Virus record (IMG/VR): IMGVR_UViG_3300044706_000051
Coordinates: 1,600-65,599 of that record
Reading direction: 5' to 3' (one strand)
DNA from: a virus
Taxonomy: Duplodnaviria; Caudoviricetes
Length of the DNA stretch: 64,000 bases
Part shown: piece after piece, positions 24,357 through 57,424 of the stretch
How the letters are laid out: the number at the start of each line of letters is the position of its first letter
Position numbering within the stretch: position 1 is the stretch's first letter
Made by a program: the position numbers and the translations under genes
The notes under the pieces: model-generated
Seen by the model: only the letters and a program-made list of their open reading frames with translations
Databases searched by the model: none
Told to the model about the DNA's origin: nothing

Positions 24357-24365
24357 AGGACTAGG

Positions 24366-24403
24366 AGAGCCCCTGGAGTAGCGGCCAGGGGCTCTTCGCT
24401 TTT
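24366..24403 (+). terminator. terminator-like hairpin
   Basis: 11-bp stem AGAGCCCCTGG/CCAGGGGCTCT followed by TCGCTTTT. Confidence 0.65.
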
Positions 24404-24689
24404 CTCGGACTCAGGTCACCGTTGACCCGTCACCGGGACGCGAAACGGGGAGCACCCCGTAGAGCTGCTCCCCGTTCATGTGCCACCCCCCGTCTCGGTG
24501 AACCGGAGGCGACCATACCGCACCTACCGGACCAACGGGAGGACGTATCAACTGGAGGACAATCCGCGACCAGCGTCGTATCTAACTGGCGTCCGCGCGA
24601 CGTACTCTGCGAGACACCCAAGAAAAAGTGCAGCTCCCCGGCGTGACCCAGGGAGCTGCCGACCGGTACCTGCAAGGAGGACACCGATC

Positions 24690-25349
24690 ATGCCAGCGAA
24701 AACTACGCGCTCGGCGCCGGCAGCGCCAGCTCCCGAGCCGACCTCGACTGTGACCCTGGTGGCCGAGGGCGACGCCGCCCTGGTGCTGCACAACGAGCGC
24801 CTGGCCGACCCTCTCGACCCCGTCACCCGGGCCATCGCCGCCATTTCCAAGAAGCGCTCCAAGACCGAGGCCGACCATCTGGAGATCGCCCGACTCGAAT
24901 TCCTGGGCGGCCTGTACCTGAACGGGCCGGCGGAATTCGATGACGGCCACTTCATCATGGGCAAGGATGTCAAGCCGGCCATCCCGGCCTGGAACGTCCT
25001 GCGCTGCCTTCAGGACGGCGCCACCCGGCACAAGCGGGGCAAGGACGTCCTGCGGGGCTGCCACCCCCTGACGGAGTTCGCCGAGCTGCACTATGACGGC
25101 CCGACGGACCCGGACCTGATGTGGAAGTCCGGCGACTTCTCGCTGCGGAAGACCGTCGGCGTCCAGCGCGCCCGCACTGTCCGCACCCGGCCGTTCTTCT
25201 CGCCCTGGAGCGTCACGCTGCGGATCGAGGTGGACCCCGTCGTCTTCGACCTCGACACCCTGGCCGTGATGTGGCGGGAGGCCGGCCGGTACGCCGGGCT
25301 CGGCGAGATGCGCCCCGTCTACGGTCGCTTCATCGGGCGGATCCAGTGA
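24690..25349 (+). CDS. standalone Cas7/RAMP-like protein (Vipr-like), 219 aa
   Basis: beta1 VTLVAEGDAALVLHN; PAIPAWNVLRCL (cf. P.IP.SS.KG); thumb-like VGVQRARTVRTRP; C-terminal Gly-rich loop AGRYAGLGEMRPVYGRF; AAGGAGG RBS; abuts the pentamer array. Confidence 0.75.
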   Translation: MPAKTTRSAPAAPAPEPTSTVTLVAEGDAALVLHNERLADPLDPVTRAIAAISKKRSKTEADHLEIARLEFLGGLYLNGPAEFDDGHFIMGKDVKPAIPAWNVLRCLQDGATRHKRGKDVLRGCHPLTEFAELHYDGPTDPDLMWKSGDFSLRKTVGVQRARTVRTRPFFSPWSVTLRIEVDPVVFDLDTLAVMWREAGRYAGLGEMRPVYGRFIGRIQ

Positions 25350-25555
25350 GGGGGCCGGCCAGCTCCGAGCCGGCCCACCGCCTCGGGGTGGCCCTGCGCC
25401 GCCTCGGGACGATCATGGGCATCAAGAGCGTCCGGGCCGAGGAGGAGATCCGCCAGGAGAATCACGGCGGTGACCCTGTCGGATTGACAGCGAAGATGGA
25501 AGCTCGGACGGCCGAAATCGAGAAAATCGTCAAGCTCTCGGAGGAAGGGCTGTAA
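25346..25555 (+). CDS. 69-aa hypothetical protein between RAMP-like gene and array
   Basis: GTGA overlap with RAMP stop; ends TAA 25553-25555 just before the array. Confidence 0.55.
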   Translation: MRGPASSEPAHRLGVALRRLGTIMGIKSVRAEEEIRQENHGGDPVGLTAKMEARTAEIEKIVKLSEEGL

Positions 25556-25561
25556 CTCCCC

Positions 25562-26586
25562 ATGGCCGGCCGCGGCTTCGCAGCGTTCGGCATGGCGGGG
25601 CTACACCCGTCCCGGCTGGGCTTGGTTCGGCTCCCCTCGGCACGGTGTGGCGCGTCGCGGCACGTCAAAGGGCGCGTCGTGGCGAGGCTCGGCCATTCGA
25701 ATCACCGGCGAGTCCCGGCTCGGCAAGGCCCGGCAGGGCCAGGCACGGCTCCCCAGCGGCATGGCGCGGCGATACGTTGTCTCGGCAAGTCAAGGCTCGG
25801 CCAAGCAGTTCGCGGCGGGTCTTGGCGCGGCATGGCTCCCCTGAGTCTCGTCTGGCCCCTGGTGCCAGGGCTGGGCGAGGCAGGGAGCGGCTCCCCGCGG
25901 CGCTGCTGGTCCGGGTGAGGCATGGCTCGGTAGGGCTCTGGCTCGACCCGGCATGGCTCAGCTCGGCCAGGCGTGGCTCCCCTCATGACCAGGCACGGCA
26001 GGACACGGCCAGGCGAGGCAAGGTGTGGCTCCCCTCTGGCTGGACCGGTCCTGGCTAGGCGAGTGTGTCCGGGCCAGGCTTGGCAGGGCACGGTACGGCT
26101 CCCCTGCGGCTGGGCCTGGCGAGGCTGTGCGGTGTCGTGACCGGGCATGACAGGTCAGTACCCGGCAAGACGGGGTTAGGCAGGGTGCGGCACGGCGTGG
26201 CTCCCCTTCACTCGGCGAGAGGAGGTATGGCTGATCTAGGCGAGGCGGGACGTGACTCCCCGCGGGTGAGGCATGGTGCGGCGTGGCAGGCAGTGGCGGG
26301 GCAGGACGGGACAAGGCTCGGCTCCCCAAGTCCCGGCATGGCGCAGCAAGGCATGGCAAGACGCGACCCGGCAAGTGTTGGCGAAGGCGAGTCGAAGGCC
26401 CGGCGTGGCTCCCCGGGGTTCGGCTGGGCCATTCCCGGCGCCGCTGGGCCAGGCAGGACAGGGGCGTGGCAGAGCTGGGCACGGCTTGTCGGGGCTCCCT
26501 ATGGCACGGCAAGGTGCGGCCAGGTGCGGCCAGGCCGGACATGGCATGGCGAGGTGAGGCTAGGCCGGTCCCGGCCGGGCTCCCCC
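25562..26586 (+). ncRNA. GGY-NN pentamer guide-like array, about 13 units delimited by GGCTCCCC
   Basis: 5-nt periodicity of GGC/GGT (variants GAC, GTC, AGC) separated by variable dinucleotides; delimiter at 25629, 25747, 25834, 25889, 25975, 26027, 26097, 26199, 26254 (variant), 26320, 26407, 26493 (variant), 26578. Confidence 0.85.
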
Positions 26587-26600
26587 TCATAAAGGCAGAA

Positions 26601-26628
26601 CGGCGGCTCTCACGGGAGCCGCCGCTTT
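26601..26628 (+). terminator. intrinsic terminator closing the array
   Basis: CGGCGGCTC/GAGCCGCCG stem followed by CTTT, between array and convergent gene. Confidence 0.75.
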
Positions 26629-26643
26629 GCTATGACCTGAAGG

Positions 26644-27837
26644 TCAGGCCAAACCGAGAATCCGCCTCGCCTCAGTAACCTCAGACGGCGGCCGACCGCG
26701 CCTCGGCCTGTACTGATCGATGACCCGCTGTGCCTCAGCCCGGCTCATGGTCCCGCCGCCGTTCGTCTCGGCCGGGGCTGGTGTGGCCTTCTTGGCCGGC
26801 GCCGCCCGCTTGGCCGGGGTGGCCTTCTTGGCCGGCGGGGCGGTCTTCTTGACCGGCGGTGCCACCTTCTTGGCGGCCGGCGCCCTCTTCGGTGCGGTGG
26901 CCTTGGCCGCCGCCGGCTTCGACTCGACGGCCATGGCCGCCTTGGGCGCCGGCTGGGCCTCGGCCATGATGGCCTCGACGGCGGCGACGAACGCTTCGGA
27001 TGCCTTCTCCAGTACGGCCAGGAGGCGGCGCTGGAATTCCGACATGCCCGTCACCTGCCTGACCTCCTCCACGATGTCTTGCTCCATATCCAGTACGGCC
27101 ACGTCGGTGTCATCCTCCTCGGGAAGCGAGAATTCCTCGTCCTCGGGCAGCTCCCCGTCCTCGTCGGCCTCGTCCTCGTCCTCGTCAGAATCGAGATCGT
27201 CCTCGGCCTCGGGCTCAGGGAAGTCTGAGGACTCGTCGTCCTCGTCCCCATTTTCTTCCTCTTCCGCAGGAATTTCATCCTCGGGAGCCGGTTGACCTGC
27301 ATTTTCAGCCTCGTTCAGGTCATTTTCGGCCACGATTTCGGCCTCGGGGATCTCGTCCGACACCGGCTCGTCGGCCTCCTCGTCTCCGGTCACCAGCTCG
27401 ATGCGGTCGAGCCCCCGGGTCAGCTCCAGCAGGGCGATGCCCTTGGCGTCAGCCTCCCGCACGGCGTCGAGGCCGGCCTCGTCCTCGTCGTCCCAGAGGA
27501 CGATCAGCTTGCCGTTGCGGGCCTCTTCCAGGAGGCTGGCAAGTTTGTGGGCCACGGCGGTGGACTGGTGCTGCCGGCGGGCGCCGCCCAGGAGTGCCTT
27601 CAGCTCCTTAACCTTCGCCGTTGAATCATCAACAACAGCCTCGACAGGGACCCCGTTGTCCACGGCGAAGGAGCTGACCACCTCCAGGGCGGGGTTCCAG
27701 AACGCCTTGGTCATGGGGAGGATGAACTTGGCGTTGCCTCCCTCGGCGTCGATCAGGTCACGCAGCAGGGCGTACGCATTGCGTTTCTCGACCTTGCCTG
27801 TCCCGACGAACCCCAGCGTCAATTCCGAGCGCGCCAT
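26644..27837 (-). CDS. multidomain protein: Rossmann/SLOG-like N-domain, acidic linker, histone-H1-like PAKK repeats, C-terminal AT-hook
   Basis: LGFVGTG...IVLWD; D/E-rich tract; PAKKA/PAKRA repeats; YRPRRGRPP. Confidence 0.75.
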   Translation of the reverse strand: MARSELTLGFVGTGKVEKRNAYALLRDLIDAEGGNAKFILPMTKAFWNPALEVVSSFAVDNGVPVEAVVDDSTAKVKELKALLGGARRQHQSTAVAHKLASLLEEARNGKLIVLWDDEDEAGLDAVREADAKGIALLELTRGLDRIELVTGDEEADEPVSDEIPEAEIVAENDLNEAENAGQPAPEDEIPAEEEENGDEDDESSDFPEPEAEDDLDSDEDEDEADEDGELPEDEEFSLPEEDDTDVAVLDMEQDIVEEVRQVTGMSEFQRRLLAVLEKASEAFVAAVEAIMAEAQPAPKAAMAVESKPAAAKATAPKRAPAAKKVAPPVKKTAPPAKKATPAKRAAPAKKATPAPAETNGGGTMSRAEAQRVIDQYRPRRGRPPSEVTEARRILGLA

Positions 27838-27883
27838 CTAGTGCCCCTTTCTGTTTTCCGAGGGTGCCCGCTGAATTCGCAGA

Positions 27884-28162
27884 TTACCGGACTGGCCGGC
27901 GACCGGCCGTGGACCGGAAGAAAATCTGCTGCTTTTTATCGTCGGAAATCATGGAGAGGCAAGCCCGAATTTCGTGAGCTACCGAGGCGAGGCCCCACGC
28001 ACCCACGATGACCAGCCACTCTGTTCCTGCAAGGGTTCCGAAAATTCCTACCAGGCCGAGGGAGATAGCCGACTTCGTCCATGCCCGGGTCGGCCAAGGG
28101 ATTAACTCCTTGACGAATTCGGTGCCCTTCATCGCCGCCAGTGCCACAAGGATTAACTCCAT
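27884..28162 (-). CDS. holin-like membrane protein
   Basis: 92 aa, 2-3 hydrophobic segments, charged C-terminus, last gene of the structural operon. Confidence 0.5.
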   Translation of the reverse strand: MELILVALAAMKGTEFVKELIPWPTRAWTKSAISLGLVGIFGTLAGTEWLVIVGAWGLASVAHEIRACLSMISDDKKQQIFFRSTAGRRPVR

Positions 28163-28196
28163 TGAATCCCCGATTCGTCGTCCGAATTCGGGAAAT

Positions 28197-29669
28197 CTAC
28201 AGCGGCTGGGCGTAGTGCAGGGTGTAAGTGATCCCCATCGGCAGGAAATCGGTGATGCGGGTCACCAGGCGTGAATTCCTGACCGCCCGGCGGTGGTAGT
28301 AGTGCGAGCGCGACAGGTTGACCGTGGACTCCCAGAGGTAGTCGGCCACCGAGGTGCCGTCCATCGGGGTCGAGCCGTCGAAGTAGGGCTGGACGACGGG
28401 GCTGGCCTCGAAGAGGACGGCGTCGTAGTACTGGACGGCCGCGGCGTCAGCCGACAGGACGGTCAGCACCACCGCCGCCCAGGCGGCGCCGGCCGGGGCA
28501 ACGGCGGTCACCGACACCTGGCTCCAGCTCCCGATGACCTGGGTCACTGGCGTGCCCTGAGAGGTGCTCAGAAGGCCGCCAGAGGCGTTGTACCACCGGA
28601 TGTCGGCCCGGAGGCTCTTGGCCGTCCCCGACGCCTTGTAGACCGACAGGGAGCCGGTGTAGAACGACCCGGCCGTGACCGGCATGCCGGCGGTGCCGGC
28701 CGGCGTGGCCGCCGTGACGTCGCCGTTGGCCGTGACGGTGAGGGCGAAGCTGGCCGACCCATAGAGTCGCTGGGCCGTGGAGCGGGCCAGGGCGGCGTTG
28801 GTTGTCGTCCAGGAACTGACGTCCGTCTCGGCCGAGGAATTGACGACAAGGTTGACCCGCTCGGCCAGGAGGGTGACGTCCACCGTGCCAGCCGAGGCCG
28901 AGGTGACTTCAGCCGACCAGCCGGTGAGCACCTCGACGGCCTTCTCCAGGCCGAGCGCCGTCCCCTTCAGCTTGTAGATGTAGACGGCGTTGAGGAGCTG
29001 GCGGCGGATGAGGGCGCCGCCCAGCTCGGCCTCCAGGGGAAAGCCCAGCTCGTCGGCCAGGTAGGCCAGGAGCCCGTAGGACATCAGGTCGGGGTCCATG
29101 ACCCACAGCAGGGACTCCATCTCCGAGCGCAGCGTGTTGCACTCGTAGCCGATCAGGCTGAGGTAGGTCTGGAGCATGGGGAGCCCCAGGTAGGACGAGA
29201 TGTAGATGTCGTCGTCCCGGTAGACCCCCGGCGTCAGCTCGTAGAGCCGGTCGGCGTAGCCGTAGTCCTTGGGCAGGAGGCAGACGGTGTTGCCGGCCCG
29301 GATCCAGTCGCCGGCCGGCGTCGTGCGGACGAAGATCGAGTAGTAGTGGAACCGCAGGGGGGCGACCCGGGTGTCCTCGTAGGTCTGGGGGTCGGGCGGC
29401 AGGCCGGCGATGAGGACGTTGCCGCTGCCGTCGGTATTGCTGGCCTCGACCAGCAGCGTTCCCTCGGTCTGATCCATGGGGAAGCCGGTCATGCCCCGGA
29501 CGAGGCGCAGCTTGTCCCAGCTCCCGCTCGGGTGGCCCCAGTTGACCTTGATCCGGTCGTAGAGGTCGGGCAGGGCTTCGAAAATGCCGAGATCGAAGGC
29601 GTAGCGCGGCGGTGTGCCGTACCGGGCGGTGCCGTAGAAATGGACTCCGTAAATTGCGTAGTCGGGCAT
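28197..29669 (-). CDS. baseplate/tail protein (P2 gpI-like region + CBM-like domain)
   Basis: RLYEL.PGVYR, LAYLADELGF, R...LN.V.IYKLKGT..GLE..V..LTGW; then NLVVNSSAETDVSSW carbohydrate-binding-like fold. Confidence 0.75.
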   Translation of the reverse strand: MPDYAIYGVHFYGTARYGTPPRYAFDLGIFEALPDLYDRIKVNWGHPSGSWDKLRLVRGMTGFPMDQTEGTLLVEASNTDGSGNVLIAGLPPDPQTYEDTRVAPLRFHYYSIFVRTTPAGDWIRAGNTVCLLPKDYGYADRLYELTPGVYRDDDIYISSYLGLPMLQTYLSLIGYECNTLRSEMESLLWVMDPDLMSYGLLAYLADELGFPLEAELGGALIRRQLLNAVYIYKLKGTALGLEKAVEVLTGWSAEVTSASAGTVDVTLLAERVNLVVNSSAETDVSSWTTTNAALARSTAQRLYGSASFALTVTANGDVTAATPAGTAGMPVTAGSFYTGSLSVYKASGTAKSLRADIRWYNASGGLLSTSQGTPVTQVIGSWSQVSVTAVAPAGAAWAAVVLTVLSADAAAVQYYDAVLFEASPVVQPYFDGSTPMDGTSVADYLWESTVNLSRSHYYHRRAVRNSRLVTRITDFLPMGITYTLHYAQPL

Positions 29670-53580: not shown

Positions 53581-56305
53581 CGCGCAGCTCCTCCGTCCTC
53601 CTCATGCTACGGCCTTCATCGAGGGTCATTTCCTGAGCTGGCGTGACTGACGCCCGCCGAGCGGTGTCGGTCATCGTCGTGGCGCCGACGGCAGCGAGCT
53701 GGCGGTTCTGGGCGACCATTTCTTCGAGGGGTGTAACCGTGGCCCGGCGGGTCGTGTCGGAAATGGGGACGGCCCCGACCGTGGTCGGTGTCGGCCCCAG
53801 CGGCCGGTAGTAGCGCCCGAGGTAGACGACGAACACCAGGCCGTAGCCCTCGACGGAAACGGCGATCCCGAAGTAGCCCTGGTACCGGTAATCGGCCCGG
53901 CCGACGGCCACGGCGGCCAGGAGCCGGGCGAGCTGGAGCTGACGGTTGACGTCGGCCACCCCGGTCCCAGTGACAGCGACCCACCGGCCCGGGGTCAAGG
54001 TCCGGTTCACCTGGCCGACACCCGTCGTCTGCACCCAGAGGTGGAAGTAGATAGCCGGGGCAACGGTGACCTGGCCGACACCGACCGCCGCAGCCCGCCT
54101 GCTGGCCGACACGACCCGCCCCATCTGAGGGTGGCCTGTCGCTACCGTTGCCACCTGGCGCATGCCGGTCAGGCTCCGCGCGATGGCGGCTATGCCGGTT
54201 GCCCAGGCCGCTACCGCCTGGGTCACCGTCTTGCGTTCGACCATGGCCGCCTGGCCGACGGCGGCCACGGCCTGGCTGAGCGAGAACCGCCGGGTAATGG
54301 CCGCCGTCCCCGTCCCGCTCGCCGTCAGGCTGCGGTAACGGGTTACGGACCGGGAGGCGGCGACCGAGCCCGTTCCTACCACGGCGACCGAGCGCAGTTG
54401 TGTTACGGAACGGGCCAGGGTGGCGGTGCCGGTCCCAGTAGCAGTGTAGGACCGCCGCAGGGAACGGTGAGCGGACACGGCGACAGAACTGGCTCCCACC
54501 ACGGCAGCCACGACGCCGTGCCAGCGCGCCTGGCTGTCGGCCACAACACCGACGCCCAGGGTGGCAATGGAGCGACGGTAGGAGGCGAGGCGCGACGAAG
54601 CGGCGGTGCCGGTACCTATGACCGCCTCGGAGTGACCGATGAGGATCTGACGGCTGACGACGAGAATGCCTGTGGCCGCGGCGATGACGGCTATCGTCAG
54701 AACGCTCTGGACCGCCACCGCCCCCACACCGGTCACGGCCACCGTGCGGCCGGCGGTCACGCTAGGGACAACGTCGGTCGAGCCCACCCCGGTGACGGCG
54801 ACGCTACGGCCGAAGAACGACTGCCAGTTCGCCGCCGTACTGCCTGTCCCCGCTACTGCGAACGCTCGCATTATGGACAAGGTCTGGGTGGCAGCCACCG
54901 CCCCCACACCGGTCACGGAGCCGGCCCGGAGGAAGAAGCGAATCTGGATGCTCACCGCTTGGCCGGTACCGGTAGCGGCCACCAGCCGCAGGAAGAGCCG
55001 GCCCTGTGTACTTGTAGGCACGCCGACCCCGGTCACCGCCAAGGAGCGGTAGAAGGCGAGCTGCTGGCTGATGGCCGGGACACCGAGTCCACTGACCGCC
55101 GCAGCCCGCACGAAGGAGCGGAGCTGGGCTACAGCAACGACGCCGACGCCGGACACCGCCTGGGACCGGAGTCGCGTCGTCACTGTGCTGGCGGCCAGAA
55201 CGCCCAGGCCCGTCACGGCGACCGCCCGGCCGGCGGTGACCTTGCGGGAGGCACCTGCTGTGCCGACGCCACTCACGGCATAGGCCCTGTACCGAGTGCT
55301 CTTGGTCGAACTGGCCGGCGTCCCGGTACCGATCACGGCATAGGCCCTGGAGTAGGCCACCGTCCGGGTGGTGCTGGCCGAGCCCGTTCCGGTTACAGCC
55401 GCCCCCCGGAGGAAGAACTTGACGGCCGTCGCTCCAGCGACCCCTGTACCGCTCACAGCGGCCTGGCGGCTGTAGAGCGCCTGTCGGGCCACGGCCGGCG
55501 ATCCGACCCCGGAGACAGCCACAGAGCGGGCTCTGGAGACGATCCGCGAGTAGGCGGGGGAGCCGGCCCCGGTAACGGCGAACGGCCGGCCGAGGAAGAG
55601 CTGGCGGGCCAGAGCCGGGCTACCGACACCGCTCACGGCGAAGGACCGCAGGAGAATCTTGTTCTGAACGGCGGTGACCTGGCCGACCCCGGAAACAGCT
55701 CCAGTTCGAGCGGCTGTGACTTGCCGGGCCGCCACCGCCTGCCCGATTCCGCTGACCGAAGCCGACCGGCTGAAAACTAGTTTTCTGCTCGTTGCCGCCG
55801 AACTGGTCCCGGTGACCGCCTGGGACCGCAACAGCAGGAGTTGACGGCTCATCGCTGACGACCCGACGGACGTCACCGCCACCGTTCGGCCGTAAACCTT
55901 GGCCGAGGTCTGAGCGACCGACCCGATGCCGGTCACGGCAGCGGCCCGGCTGTACAGGGTGATCCGACTCGCTGCGACGGTACCGACACCTGAAGTAGCC
56001 GTCGCTCGACCGAAGGACTTCACCGCCGCTTGAGCGGCCACGCCGACACCGATCACGGCAAATGACCGGCTGTAGCCGACGAGCCGGCTGGAAGCGGCAG
56101 TTCCGACACCTGAGACGCTCGCCGAGCGACCATAGACTTTGGCTTCGGTCGAGGCGACCGAGCTGACAGCGGTCGCGTTGTAACTCCGGGCAAGCGTCTG
56201 CTTAGCCGTGATCGCTACCGAGCCGACACCTGTGACAGCAACGCTCTGGGAATAGTGCTGGGCGCCGCCCCACCCCATCTCGAAGCGGGTGAGAGCCGCT
56301 CCCAT
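53570..56305 (-). CDS. 911-aa repetitive Ala/Val/Gly/Ser/Thr-rich virion protein
   Basis: Dozens of ~23-aa repeats R(S/A).AV(T/S)G(V/T)G. Confidence 0.75.
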   Translation of the reverse strand: MGAALTRFEMGWGGAQHYSQSVAVTGVGSVAITAKQTLARSYNATAVSSVASTEAKVYGRSASVSGVGTAASSRLVGYSRSFAVIGVGVAAQAAVKSFGRATATSGVGTVAASRITLYSRAAAVTGIGSVAQTSAKVYGRTVAVTSVGSSAMSRQLLLLRSQAVTGTSSAATSRKLVFSRSASVSGIGQAVAARQVTAARTGAVSGVGQVTAVQNKILLRSFAVSGVGSPALARQLFLGRPFAVTGAGSPAYSRIVSRARSVAVSGVGSPAVARQALYSRQAAVSGTGVAGATAVKFFLRGAAVTGTGSASTTRTVAYSRAYAVIGTGTPASSTKSTRYRAYAVSGVGTAGASRKVTAGRAVAVTGLGVLAASTVTTRLRSQAVSGVGVVAVAQLRSFVRAAAVSGLGVPAISQQLAFYRSLAVTGVGVPTSTQGRLFLRLVAATGTGQAVSIQIRFFLRAGSVTGVGAVAATQTLSIMRAFAVAGTGSTAANWQSFFGRSVAVTGVGSTDVVPSVTAGRTVAVTGVGAVAVQSVLTIAVIAAATGILVVSRQILIGHSEAVIGTGTAASSRLASYRRSIATLGVGVVADSQARWHGVVAAVVGASSVAVSAHRSLRRSYTATGTGTATLARSVTQLRSVAVVGTGSVAASRSVTRYRSLTASGTGTAAITRRFSLSQAVAAVGQAAMVERKTVTQAVAAWATGIAAIARSLTGMRQVATVATGHPQMGRVVSASRRAAAVGVGQVTVAPAIYFHLWVQTTGVGQVNRTLTPGRWVAVTGTGVADVNRQLQLARLLAAVAVGRADYRYQGYFGIAVSVEGYGLVFVVYLGRYYRPLGPTPTTVGAVPISDTTRRATVTPLEEMVAQNRQLAAVGATTMTDTARRASVTPAQEMTLDEGRSMRRTEELRDVT

Positions 56306-57424
56306 TTACGGCGTTTCCTCAGTCCACTCCGCCGCGATTGTCCACGTCGCCGTGGGTGAAGTTCCGCCAAGCGTCTGGATGAAGGCGAGGTGGATCTCCT
56401 CGCCCGTTCCCCGAATCGTCGGGCATTTCGCCGGATGTCCTGACCAGTCCCATGACCACGAGAACGTGCCTACTGCAATAGCAGCCCGGAACAGGCGAAT
56501 CACGGCTGTCGAGACACCACCACCAGACGGCGCCGCCGTGTAGTGGACGGGCGCGCCCGTCGCCGCCGGATCGTTGGTGTCGAGCGGGCCACTCGATAGT
56601 GGCGTCCCCGTCGTTCCGCCTGTCGAAGCTGACGCCTTCCGTAGTACGACAGGGAAGAACCCGGTCGGAGCCGTGCCGCCGATTACCACAGCGACATCAA
56701 GGTGAGTGAGCTTGACTACTTTCGACGCCGAGCCGAGGAGGCGCCAGACAGCGACGCCGCCGGTCAGCGCTGAGGCGAAACCGCCACCGGAGATATGGCC
56801 GGCGCCATAGGTCGCCTTGATGCCATCCACTGGCATGGTCAGCGCGATGGGGTTTGGCTCAATGAGGAATGGCCCCGGCGTGATGCGGATGGCCGCCGTG
56901 CCCGAGGTGAAGGCCGAGCAGCGCACCCGGAAGTGCGTGACGCCGGCCAGGCCGACGATCCAGATGCGCTGGTACAGGGCGGTGATCGTGTAGACGACCT
57001 GATAATCCTGGCCGGTACCGTCCTCGCGACCTGCCGCCACGGTGTAGTAGGTCGTTCCCCCGTCGTCTGATGCCTCGAAGACGAGTGTTCCGACAAAGGC
57101 CGCCGTGTTGATCGTGACCGTGGCGTTACCTGCTGACGCCACCGCCGCCACACACATGGCGGTGGTGCTCGCGGTCCCCGACACGTTGGTGGCCGACGCC
57201 GAGATCGTCTGGGCGGCCGTTGTGAAGGCGGCGCCCGAGCCGGCGATGTTGACATCGAGGCCGTTCTTCGAGCCGAGGACTGTTGCCGTTGTGACGTTGC
57301 CTTCAGCGCCGGCCACAGACCCGACTTCTTGGTGTACCGAGGCGGGCATCGACGCCCCGCCGGTCTGTGTCCGAAGGGCCTTTCCTGTCCCGTCAGCCGG
57401 GAGAACGATGGTCCCTTCAGCCAC
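56306..57424 (-). CDS. virion structural protein
   Basis: Beta-rich 372-aa ORF in head-accessory cluster; GTLVFEAS.DG.TYY, G...FRVR. Confidence 0.65.
   Translation of the reverse strand: MAEGTIVLPADGTGKALRTQTGGASMPASVHQEVGSVAGAEGNVTTATVLGSKNGLDVNIAGSGAAFTTAAQTISASATNVSGTASTTAMCVAAVASAGNATVTINTAAFVGTLVFEASDDGGTTYYTVAAGREDGTGQDYQVVYTITALYQRIWIVGLAGVTHFRVRCSAFTSGTAAIRITPGPFLIEPNPIALTMPVDGIKATYGAGHISGGGFASALTGGVAVWRLLGSASKVVKLTHLDVAVVIGGTAPTGFFPVVLRKASASTGGTTGTPLSSGPLDTNDPAATGAPVHYTAAPSGGGVSTAVIRLFRAAIAVGTFSWSWDWSGHPAKCPTIRGTGEEIHLAFIQTLGGTSPTATWTIAAEWTEETP

Follow-up and report, generated by a model that had tools for sequence, protein, structure and literature searches.

The 64-kb window, by which the whole stretch of phage DNA analysed here is meant, carries what on sequence grounds is a VIPR (Viral Interference Programmable Repeat) system, and the last guide of this cassette probably targets the alleles of a SLOG-domain gene in sibling phages, with the carrier's own allele of the same gene probably being spared. 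The VIPR mechanism, including its '1-nt skip' code and the rationale of skipping wobble positions, is already in print in three 2026 preprints (10.64898/2026.04.26.720920, 10.64898/2026.04.26.720927, 10.64898/2026.10.15.759431), and what is new here is the natural guide-target pair. According to the published descriptions, Vipr protomers coat a vrRNA of 9–16 GGY/NN repeats, bury GGY and present NN, which pairs with DNA so that every third target base, usually the codon wobble position, is skipped; either strand can be targeted, no PAM is used, and in nature the systems are directed against rival phages, satellites and further VIPR systems. Targets were called there at an NN identity of at least 0.8, which is a bioinformatic convention and not a measured binding threshold; no self match was that high, and self matches were as a rule below the non-self ones. 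The published worked examples come from Enterobacteria and Pseudomonas phages.

The phage, a 65.6-kb IMG/VR record with 66% GC, was found in soil and rhizosphere metagenomes, no RNA run being among the sequencing runs listed for its DNA, and its genes in the window include baseplate J, tail collar, DnaB, primase and SNF2 helicase; a 911-aa ORF fills positions 53650–56306. The vipr gene (24750–25349, plus strand, GTG start) encodes a RAMP/Cas7-like product of 199 aa, which falls into PHROG 4652 and is identical to P0001. Its full-length phmmer match to PDB 36pp_D, 'SUSP1 Vipr protein' (E 3.9e-17, residues 7–196 against 10–187), places the G-loop GLGEMRPVYGRF in alignment with GVGDWRPRFGRF of the SUSP1 Vipr. 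The residues H17, R39, R138, R179, G87 and K88, named in the cryo-EM work on Vipr, are retained, and the SUSP1 contact residues W178, D177, K33 and K82 are altered to M, E, A and T, respectively. The AF2 model of the protein reached a pLDDT of 97, with Csm3/Cas7, gRAMP and Cas6 as the best Foldseek matches. A sigma-70-like promoter for vipr was not found. Several earlier readings of the locus, namely a TRAP-like ring-binding RNA, a CsrA-type sponge, a G-quadruplex array, iterons or a centromere and a protein-coding pentapeptide repeat, were dropped on the PDB Vipr match.

A 69-aa ORF (25346–25555, plus strand), the candidate accessory (vap-like) gene, overlaps the vipr stop by 4 nt (GTGA); the 46-aa version of it starting with ATG (25415–25555) had no Pfam or PHROG match. 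This coupled small ORF is conserved in three cassettes: two further loci, L031:1892–3320 and L033:6001–7354, encode Viprs with 77–81% identity, followed in the same position and with the same 4-nt overlap by ORFs of 65–71 aa sharing the motif P-A-x-R-L-G-x-A-x-R-R-L-G, and by arrays punctuated with GGYTCCCY. The backbones of these phages are unrelated, and one of the two is temperate, with an integrase. Viprs of such identity, together with the same small ORF and tail motif in unrelated backbones, indicate that the cassette is mobile. In all five IMG/VR loci carrying a vipr homologue, 5-nt-periodic stretches adjoin it, and such stretches are also present in Escherichia phage wV8, Mycobacterium phage LittleE, Gordonia phage Trine and Pseudomonas phage LESphi2. 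In wV8 (L006, 2650–2850 and 4050–4250) the vrRNA arrays are annotated as 'repeat_region DR_4', and in LittleE (L007, 2650–3050 and 4250–4550) and Trine (L008, 3500–3750) they lie under hypothetical-protein ORFs; these array-covering ORF calls (LittleE gene 35 and the start of Trine gene 40) are probably spurious.

The array itself (25562–26585) occupies ~1 kb on the vipr strand and is built of NN-GGC/GGT pentamers. Within the window the 5-nt periodicity was restricted to this region, where identity at lag 5 was 0.41–0.49 as against ~0.27 for control lags over the same intervals. Eleven exact GGCTCCCC motifs and their one-base variants cut it into ~13 units, each a pentamer run of 52–171 nt ending in this 8-nt punctuation and free of palindromic repeats; many units have degenerated, showing slips of phase and triplets other than GGY. 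The only recurrent tail is the short GGCTCCCC motif, also found in the relatives L001, L031 and L033. No Rfam family was detected at E ≤ 1 in 24500–28500 besides two chance-level rows, and a hammerhead ribozyme is therefore absent from the array; a blastn search of phage genomes with the array gave a weak low-complexity match only. In contigs of the same phage from soil and rhizosphere (runs X3, X9 and X10, positions 25754–26407 of the window), the array flanks were kept with internal units replaced or skipped: 25754 passed to 25862 with 21 other letters, and 26016 to 26407 by skipping. An NN letter of the last guide was also changed in strain contigs (26521 C>A), and the guide content is therefore strain-dependent. 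The first guide (25562–25631, 14 units) matched the antisense of the phage's own small ORF (25457–25497, minus strand) in wobble register at 21 of 28 bases (0.75) and the homologous site L033:6726–6766 also at 21 of 28, with only 14–16 at the L031, L001 and L002 sites; these matches are borderline because the shuffle maximum was 21, and the first guide may be aimed at rival VIPR cassettes.

The last guide region (26501–26580, plus strand) exceeds all other units of the array in length and regularity and, with 16 tandem GGY/NN pentamers beside vipr, falls within the published range for vrRNAs. Its NN letters are AT AC AA GC CA GC CA CG AT AT GA GA TA CG CC CG. The initial annotation had described 16 perfectly phased NN-GGY pentamers; the number, the single register and the NN letters held, but the triplet was exact in 14 of 16 pentamers only, unit 8 being CGGAC (GAC) and unit 14 CGGTC (GTC). 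The unit is followed by an extended hairpin with an intrinsic terminator (26587–26635, plus strand; stem 26601–26624, then CTTTGC), which has an MFE of -32.4 kcal/mol (z -2.5) and marks the 3' end of the predicted array transcript. Together, the GGCTCCCC tails and this hairpin after the last unit may match the published 'staggered array' architecture.

The degeneration of many units might suggest that the cassette, or its last guide, is an inactive relic whose match merely records a past target. Consistent with this, the other 12 guides matched neither the window nor a sibling genome better than their shuffled nulls did. One of the short guides, with 8 units, reached 13/16 (0.81) in the window, inside its own shuffled null, and the guides of L001, L002, L031 and L033 had no match above shuffled nulls in all sequences compared. 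But the vipr gene is intact and has the near-invariant family residues, the last unit is the best-formed one of the array and is followed by a strong terminator, and the variation of internal units between strains with constant flanks suggests a live locus, which leaves a relic improbable.

The predicted target family is represented in the window by the gene at 26644–27837 (minus strand), which is convergent with the array. Its 397-aa product has 20 clear orthologues (P0272–P0291, E 1.9e-58 or better) and consists of an N-terminal domain, an acidic disordered linker, a Lys/Ala/Pro-rich tract and the C-terminal YRPRRGRPP motif, this motif, MSKAAAQKIIDAYRPRRGRPP, being conserved in all 20 orthologues. 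Residues 4–150 (AF2 model, VIA-align) aligned with YpsA at Z 11.6, ShosA at 10.3 and DprA at 9.9, by which the modelled N-domain is a SLOG domain of the YpsA/DprA-like type. The segment read by the guide corresponds to the conserved C-terminal helix with the RGRP hook.

Compared to the sibling phages, the locus differs by an insertion. In blastn alignments with four sibling loci, homology extended up to 26642–26668 depending on the sibling and resumed at ~24519 (L021) or 24320 (L022), the L021 counterpart of the interval being ~57 nt long. Since homology ends at the target-gene stop codon and resumes at ~24519, the ~2.1 kb in between (24520–26643), consisting of vipr, the 69-aa coupled ORF, the array and the terminator, are an insertion placed directly after this stop codon. 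Otherwise the gene order is the same in the sibling loci: tail fibre genes, a small ORF, the target gene, the replication initiator, DnaB and primase. Neither vipr nor a periodic array was found in the sibling loci, nor in a whole 109.7-kb sibling contig with ~75% identity to 33 kb of the window. The target site lies 57–104 bp upstream of the target-gene stop codon, and the sibling site is therefore equally close to the insertion point. Upstream of vipr, two terminator-like hairpins were observed: one at 24630–24659 (minus strand), inside the insert and facing the replication genes, and another at 24364–24397 (plus strand), in intergenic DNA common to the siblings.

The match of the last guide was assessed on the DNA of six orthologue sites and on 54 kb of sibling loci; a search for related loci with the product of the neighbouring target-family gene, or its alignment, as query found two loci in metagenomes and none among viral contigs. 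With one base skipped after each NN, all six siblings matched in frame at the orthologous C-terminal site: L018 (1537–1584) at 27 of 32 bases, L019 at 25, L020 (2335–2382) at 29, L021 at 28, L022 (7132–7179) at 28 and L023 (7096–7143) at 25. This corresponds to NN identities of 0.78–0.91, with four siblings at 0.84–0.91, i.e. above the cut-off used for VIPR targets, and two at only 0.78. From the protein sequence alone, the orthologue P0285 could reach up to 30 of 32. The guide resembles a mosaic of natural variants, its T2, Q5, R8 and E12 each being present in some sibling. The match was specific for the 1-nt skip, since skips of 0, 2 and 3 gave at most 20 of 32, and these skips together with the reversed guide stayed at or below 22. 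Thus, the gapped reading proposed in the initial annotation matches at skip 1 only and coincides with the published VIPR '1 nt skip rule' (10.64898/2026.04.26.720920), and its prediction that the target is the orthologous gene of related phages is borne out by the siblings. Over the six sibling sites, 10 of the 32 read positions varied as against 10 of the 16 skipped ones, as would be expected if robustness is gained by skipping the wobble base; the protection from synonymous escape, which the annotation had also proposed, is an idea stated in the VIPR preprints.

Chance resemblance of a biased dinucleotide string to GC-rich codons was considered with these numbers. Both strings are compositionally biased and the mapping was chosen after the fact. 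The exact gapped-pattern scans yielded no perfect target: the full 16-NN pattern had no match in viral contigs, a version with any letters allowed at unit 8 and Arg given as MGN none in viral and metagenome contigs, and the 10-NN 3' half of the guide none in viral contigs and one in genome contigs, from Lysinibacillus. The latter site matched at 25 of 32 bases, of which 20 were fixed by the pattern; with its 49% GC, in-frame stops and absence of homology it is unrelated and hence a chance match. Against these points, none of 10,000 shuffled guides exceeded 24 (the maximum) over the 54-kb sibling loci, and in the window a value of 24 was reached by a single one of 2000 guides with shuffled NN order, while the observed values were 25–29 at the orthologous site in 6 of 6 siblings, in frame and specific for the 1-nt skip. 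Chance is rejected by these shuffles and deserves practically no credence.

The phage's own copy of the site (26701–26748, minus strand) reads ATG AGC CGG GCT GAG GCA CAG CGG GTC ATC GAT CAG TAC AGG CCG AGG and encodes MSRAEAQRVIDQYRPR, residues 364–379 of the product. Recomputing confirmed the self match claimed initially, with 24 of 32 bases (0.75) and 9 of 16 dinucleotides of the guide agreeing with codon positions 1–2. When the window was scanned on both strands in 3-nt steps, a single match at 24 was obtained, the next best being 19. The sole match at this level, together with the shuffle frequency given above, which was the null proposed in the annotation, indicates that the self match is real and chance unlikely. 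It is nevertheless the lowest of the seven sites: every sibling was better by at least one base, four of them by 3–5, and no self target of the last guide reached 0.8. In this respect, the numbers agree with the suggestion of the initial annotation that the mismatches would spare self. Part of the lower self match is due to two rare AGG codons (2 of the 8 mismatches), R377 and R379 being AGG in the self site and CGN at each position in five of the six siblings. AGR makes up 8.6% of the Arg codons in the genes of this phage and 5 of 22 in the target gene; the self AGG codons give hints of recoding for avoidance of self-targeting. The margin is thin: in a strain variant from two soil runs, CGT at R379 and an altered guide letter raised the self match to 25 of 32, and two siblings are also at only 0.78.

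These observations also bear on the possibility that the guide serves the phage's own gene, with pairing at 0.75 giving a weak roadblock that tunes 26644–27837 or stops antisense run-through into the array. Guide and self site are convergent and 120 nt apart, the self site is the only match above background in the window, the strain variant improves it, and the available text of the 2026 VIPR preprints gives no figure for a measured mismatch tolerance. The better match of all six siblings, the rare AGG at both Arg positions lowering the self match, and the rule of the preprints that self stays below 0.8 and below non-self all argue in the opposite direction, and self-regulation has accordingly a small probability, about the same as that of a relic.

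For targeting of the sibling alleles, the favored explanation, the following scheme can be proposed. We infer that the array is transcribed and processed into vrRNAs, which form RNPs with Vipr. By analogy with SUSP1, the protomers would coat each vrRNA, one per pentamer, burying GGY and exposing NN, and the filament would pair with double-stranded DNA, skipping every third target base and thereby blocking transcription. The last vrRNA would be addressed to codons 364–379 of the SLOG-domain gene, the skipped base being the wobble position, and its real targets would be the alleles of close relatives lacking the cassette. As the sibling site is at the 3' end of the target gene, a roadblock there would come shortly before the replication genes, while the allele of the carrier, differing at 8 of 32 informative positions, would probably be spared from silencing.

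The locus adds an example of VIPR from a high-GC soil phage with an exactly writable guide-target pair, in which one guide faces six predicted sensitive alleles (0.78–0.91) and a single allele that is linked to it and apparently immune (0.75); such a graded allele series could be used for measuring how many NN mismatches VIPR tolerates. The cassette appears to be directed at near-identical relatives, and not at satellites or prophages, and is inserted beside its own predicted target, so that one may ask if the linkage of guide and target is of importance. A doubtful and rather improbable idea is that the cassette and a resistant target allele make up a single linked unit of 'weapon plus immunity', similar to free-standing homing endonuclease genes. 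This analogy draws on the insertion exactly at the target-gene stop codon and on the changes in the linked self allele, including the two AGG codons. If true, sibling genomes in mixed infections would be disabled by the guide at a point immediately before their replication module, recombinants gaining the cassette would gain the immune allele as well, and the tight linkage would be selected, not accidental.

Free-standing phage homing endonuclease genes, such as seg and mob of T4, are selfish cassettes located next to a conserved gene, whose linked self allele is protected. The likeness of the present locus to them is a functional analogy only, in that the cassette would recognize the allele of its adjacent gene in cassette-free relatives. 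Unlike these genes, the cassette has no nuclease domain, and the published type II VIPR silences without cleavage; a homing endonuclease cassette was rejected, the cassette consisting of vipr, the 69-aa ORF and the array only, with no encoded nuclease. With the backbone of Class 1 CRISPR-Cas effectors (the Cas7/Csm3 filament on crRNA), Vipr shares the RAMP fold, the G-loop and the thumb, as well as one protomer per fixed RNA step and periodic base flipping. In contrast to these effectors, the VIPR step is 5 nt, with 3 buried and 2 read, instead of 6 nt with 5 read, and the guide is not collinear with its target, 5 RNA bases corresponding to 3 DNA bases; furthermore, CRISPR repeats, cas1/cas2 and other cas genes are absent from the locus. 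CRISPR-Cas was rejected as an identity, as there are no constant palindromic repeats and no Rfam CRISPR repeat family, and the neighbours are tail and replication genes.

The closest known counterpart is the type II VIPR of Escherichia phage SUSP1 (Vipr, vap1 and vrRNAs; PDB 36pp), which has a homologous Vipr and GGY/NN vrRNAs beside vipr on the same strand, and with which the present locus shares a target (here a predicted one) that is read in codon register by skipping 1 nt, a rival mobile element as the target, and a self match below the non-self one. The differences are the 66% GC soil-phage backbone, the ~13 head-to-tail units, the short GGCTCCCC punctuation in place of a pseudoknot tail, the 69-aa candidate accessory ORF in place of vap1 and a predicted target that is a core gene of sibling phages instead of a satellite. 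Similarly to the VIPR clade of Pseudomonas fulva prophages, the vrRNAs would be directed against other phages of the same hosts, and the last guide, like the guides of that clade, gave no match of at least 0.8 when checked against its own sequence; while the targets of that clade are mainly lysis-lysogeny regulators of resident prophages, the one predicted here is the 3' end of the SLOG-domain gene by the replication module of near relatives.
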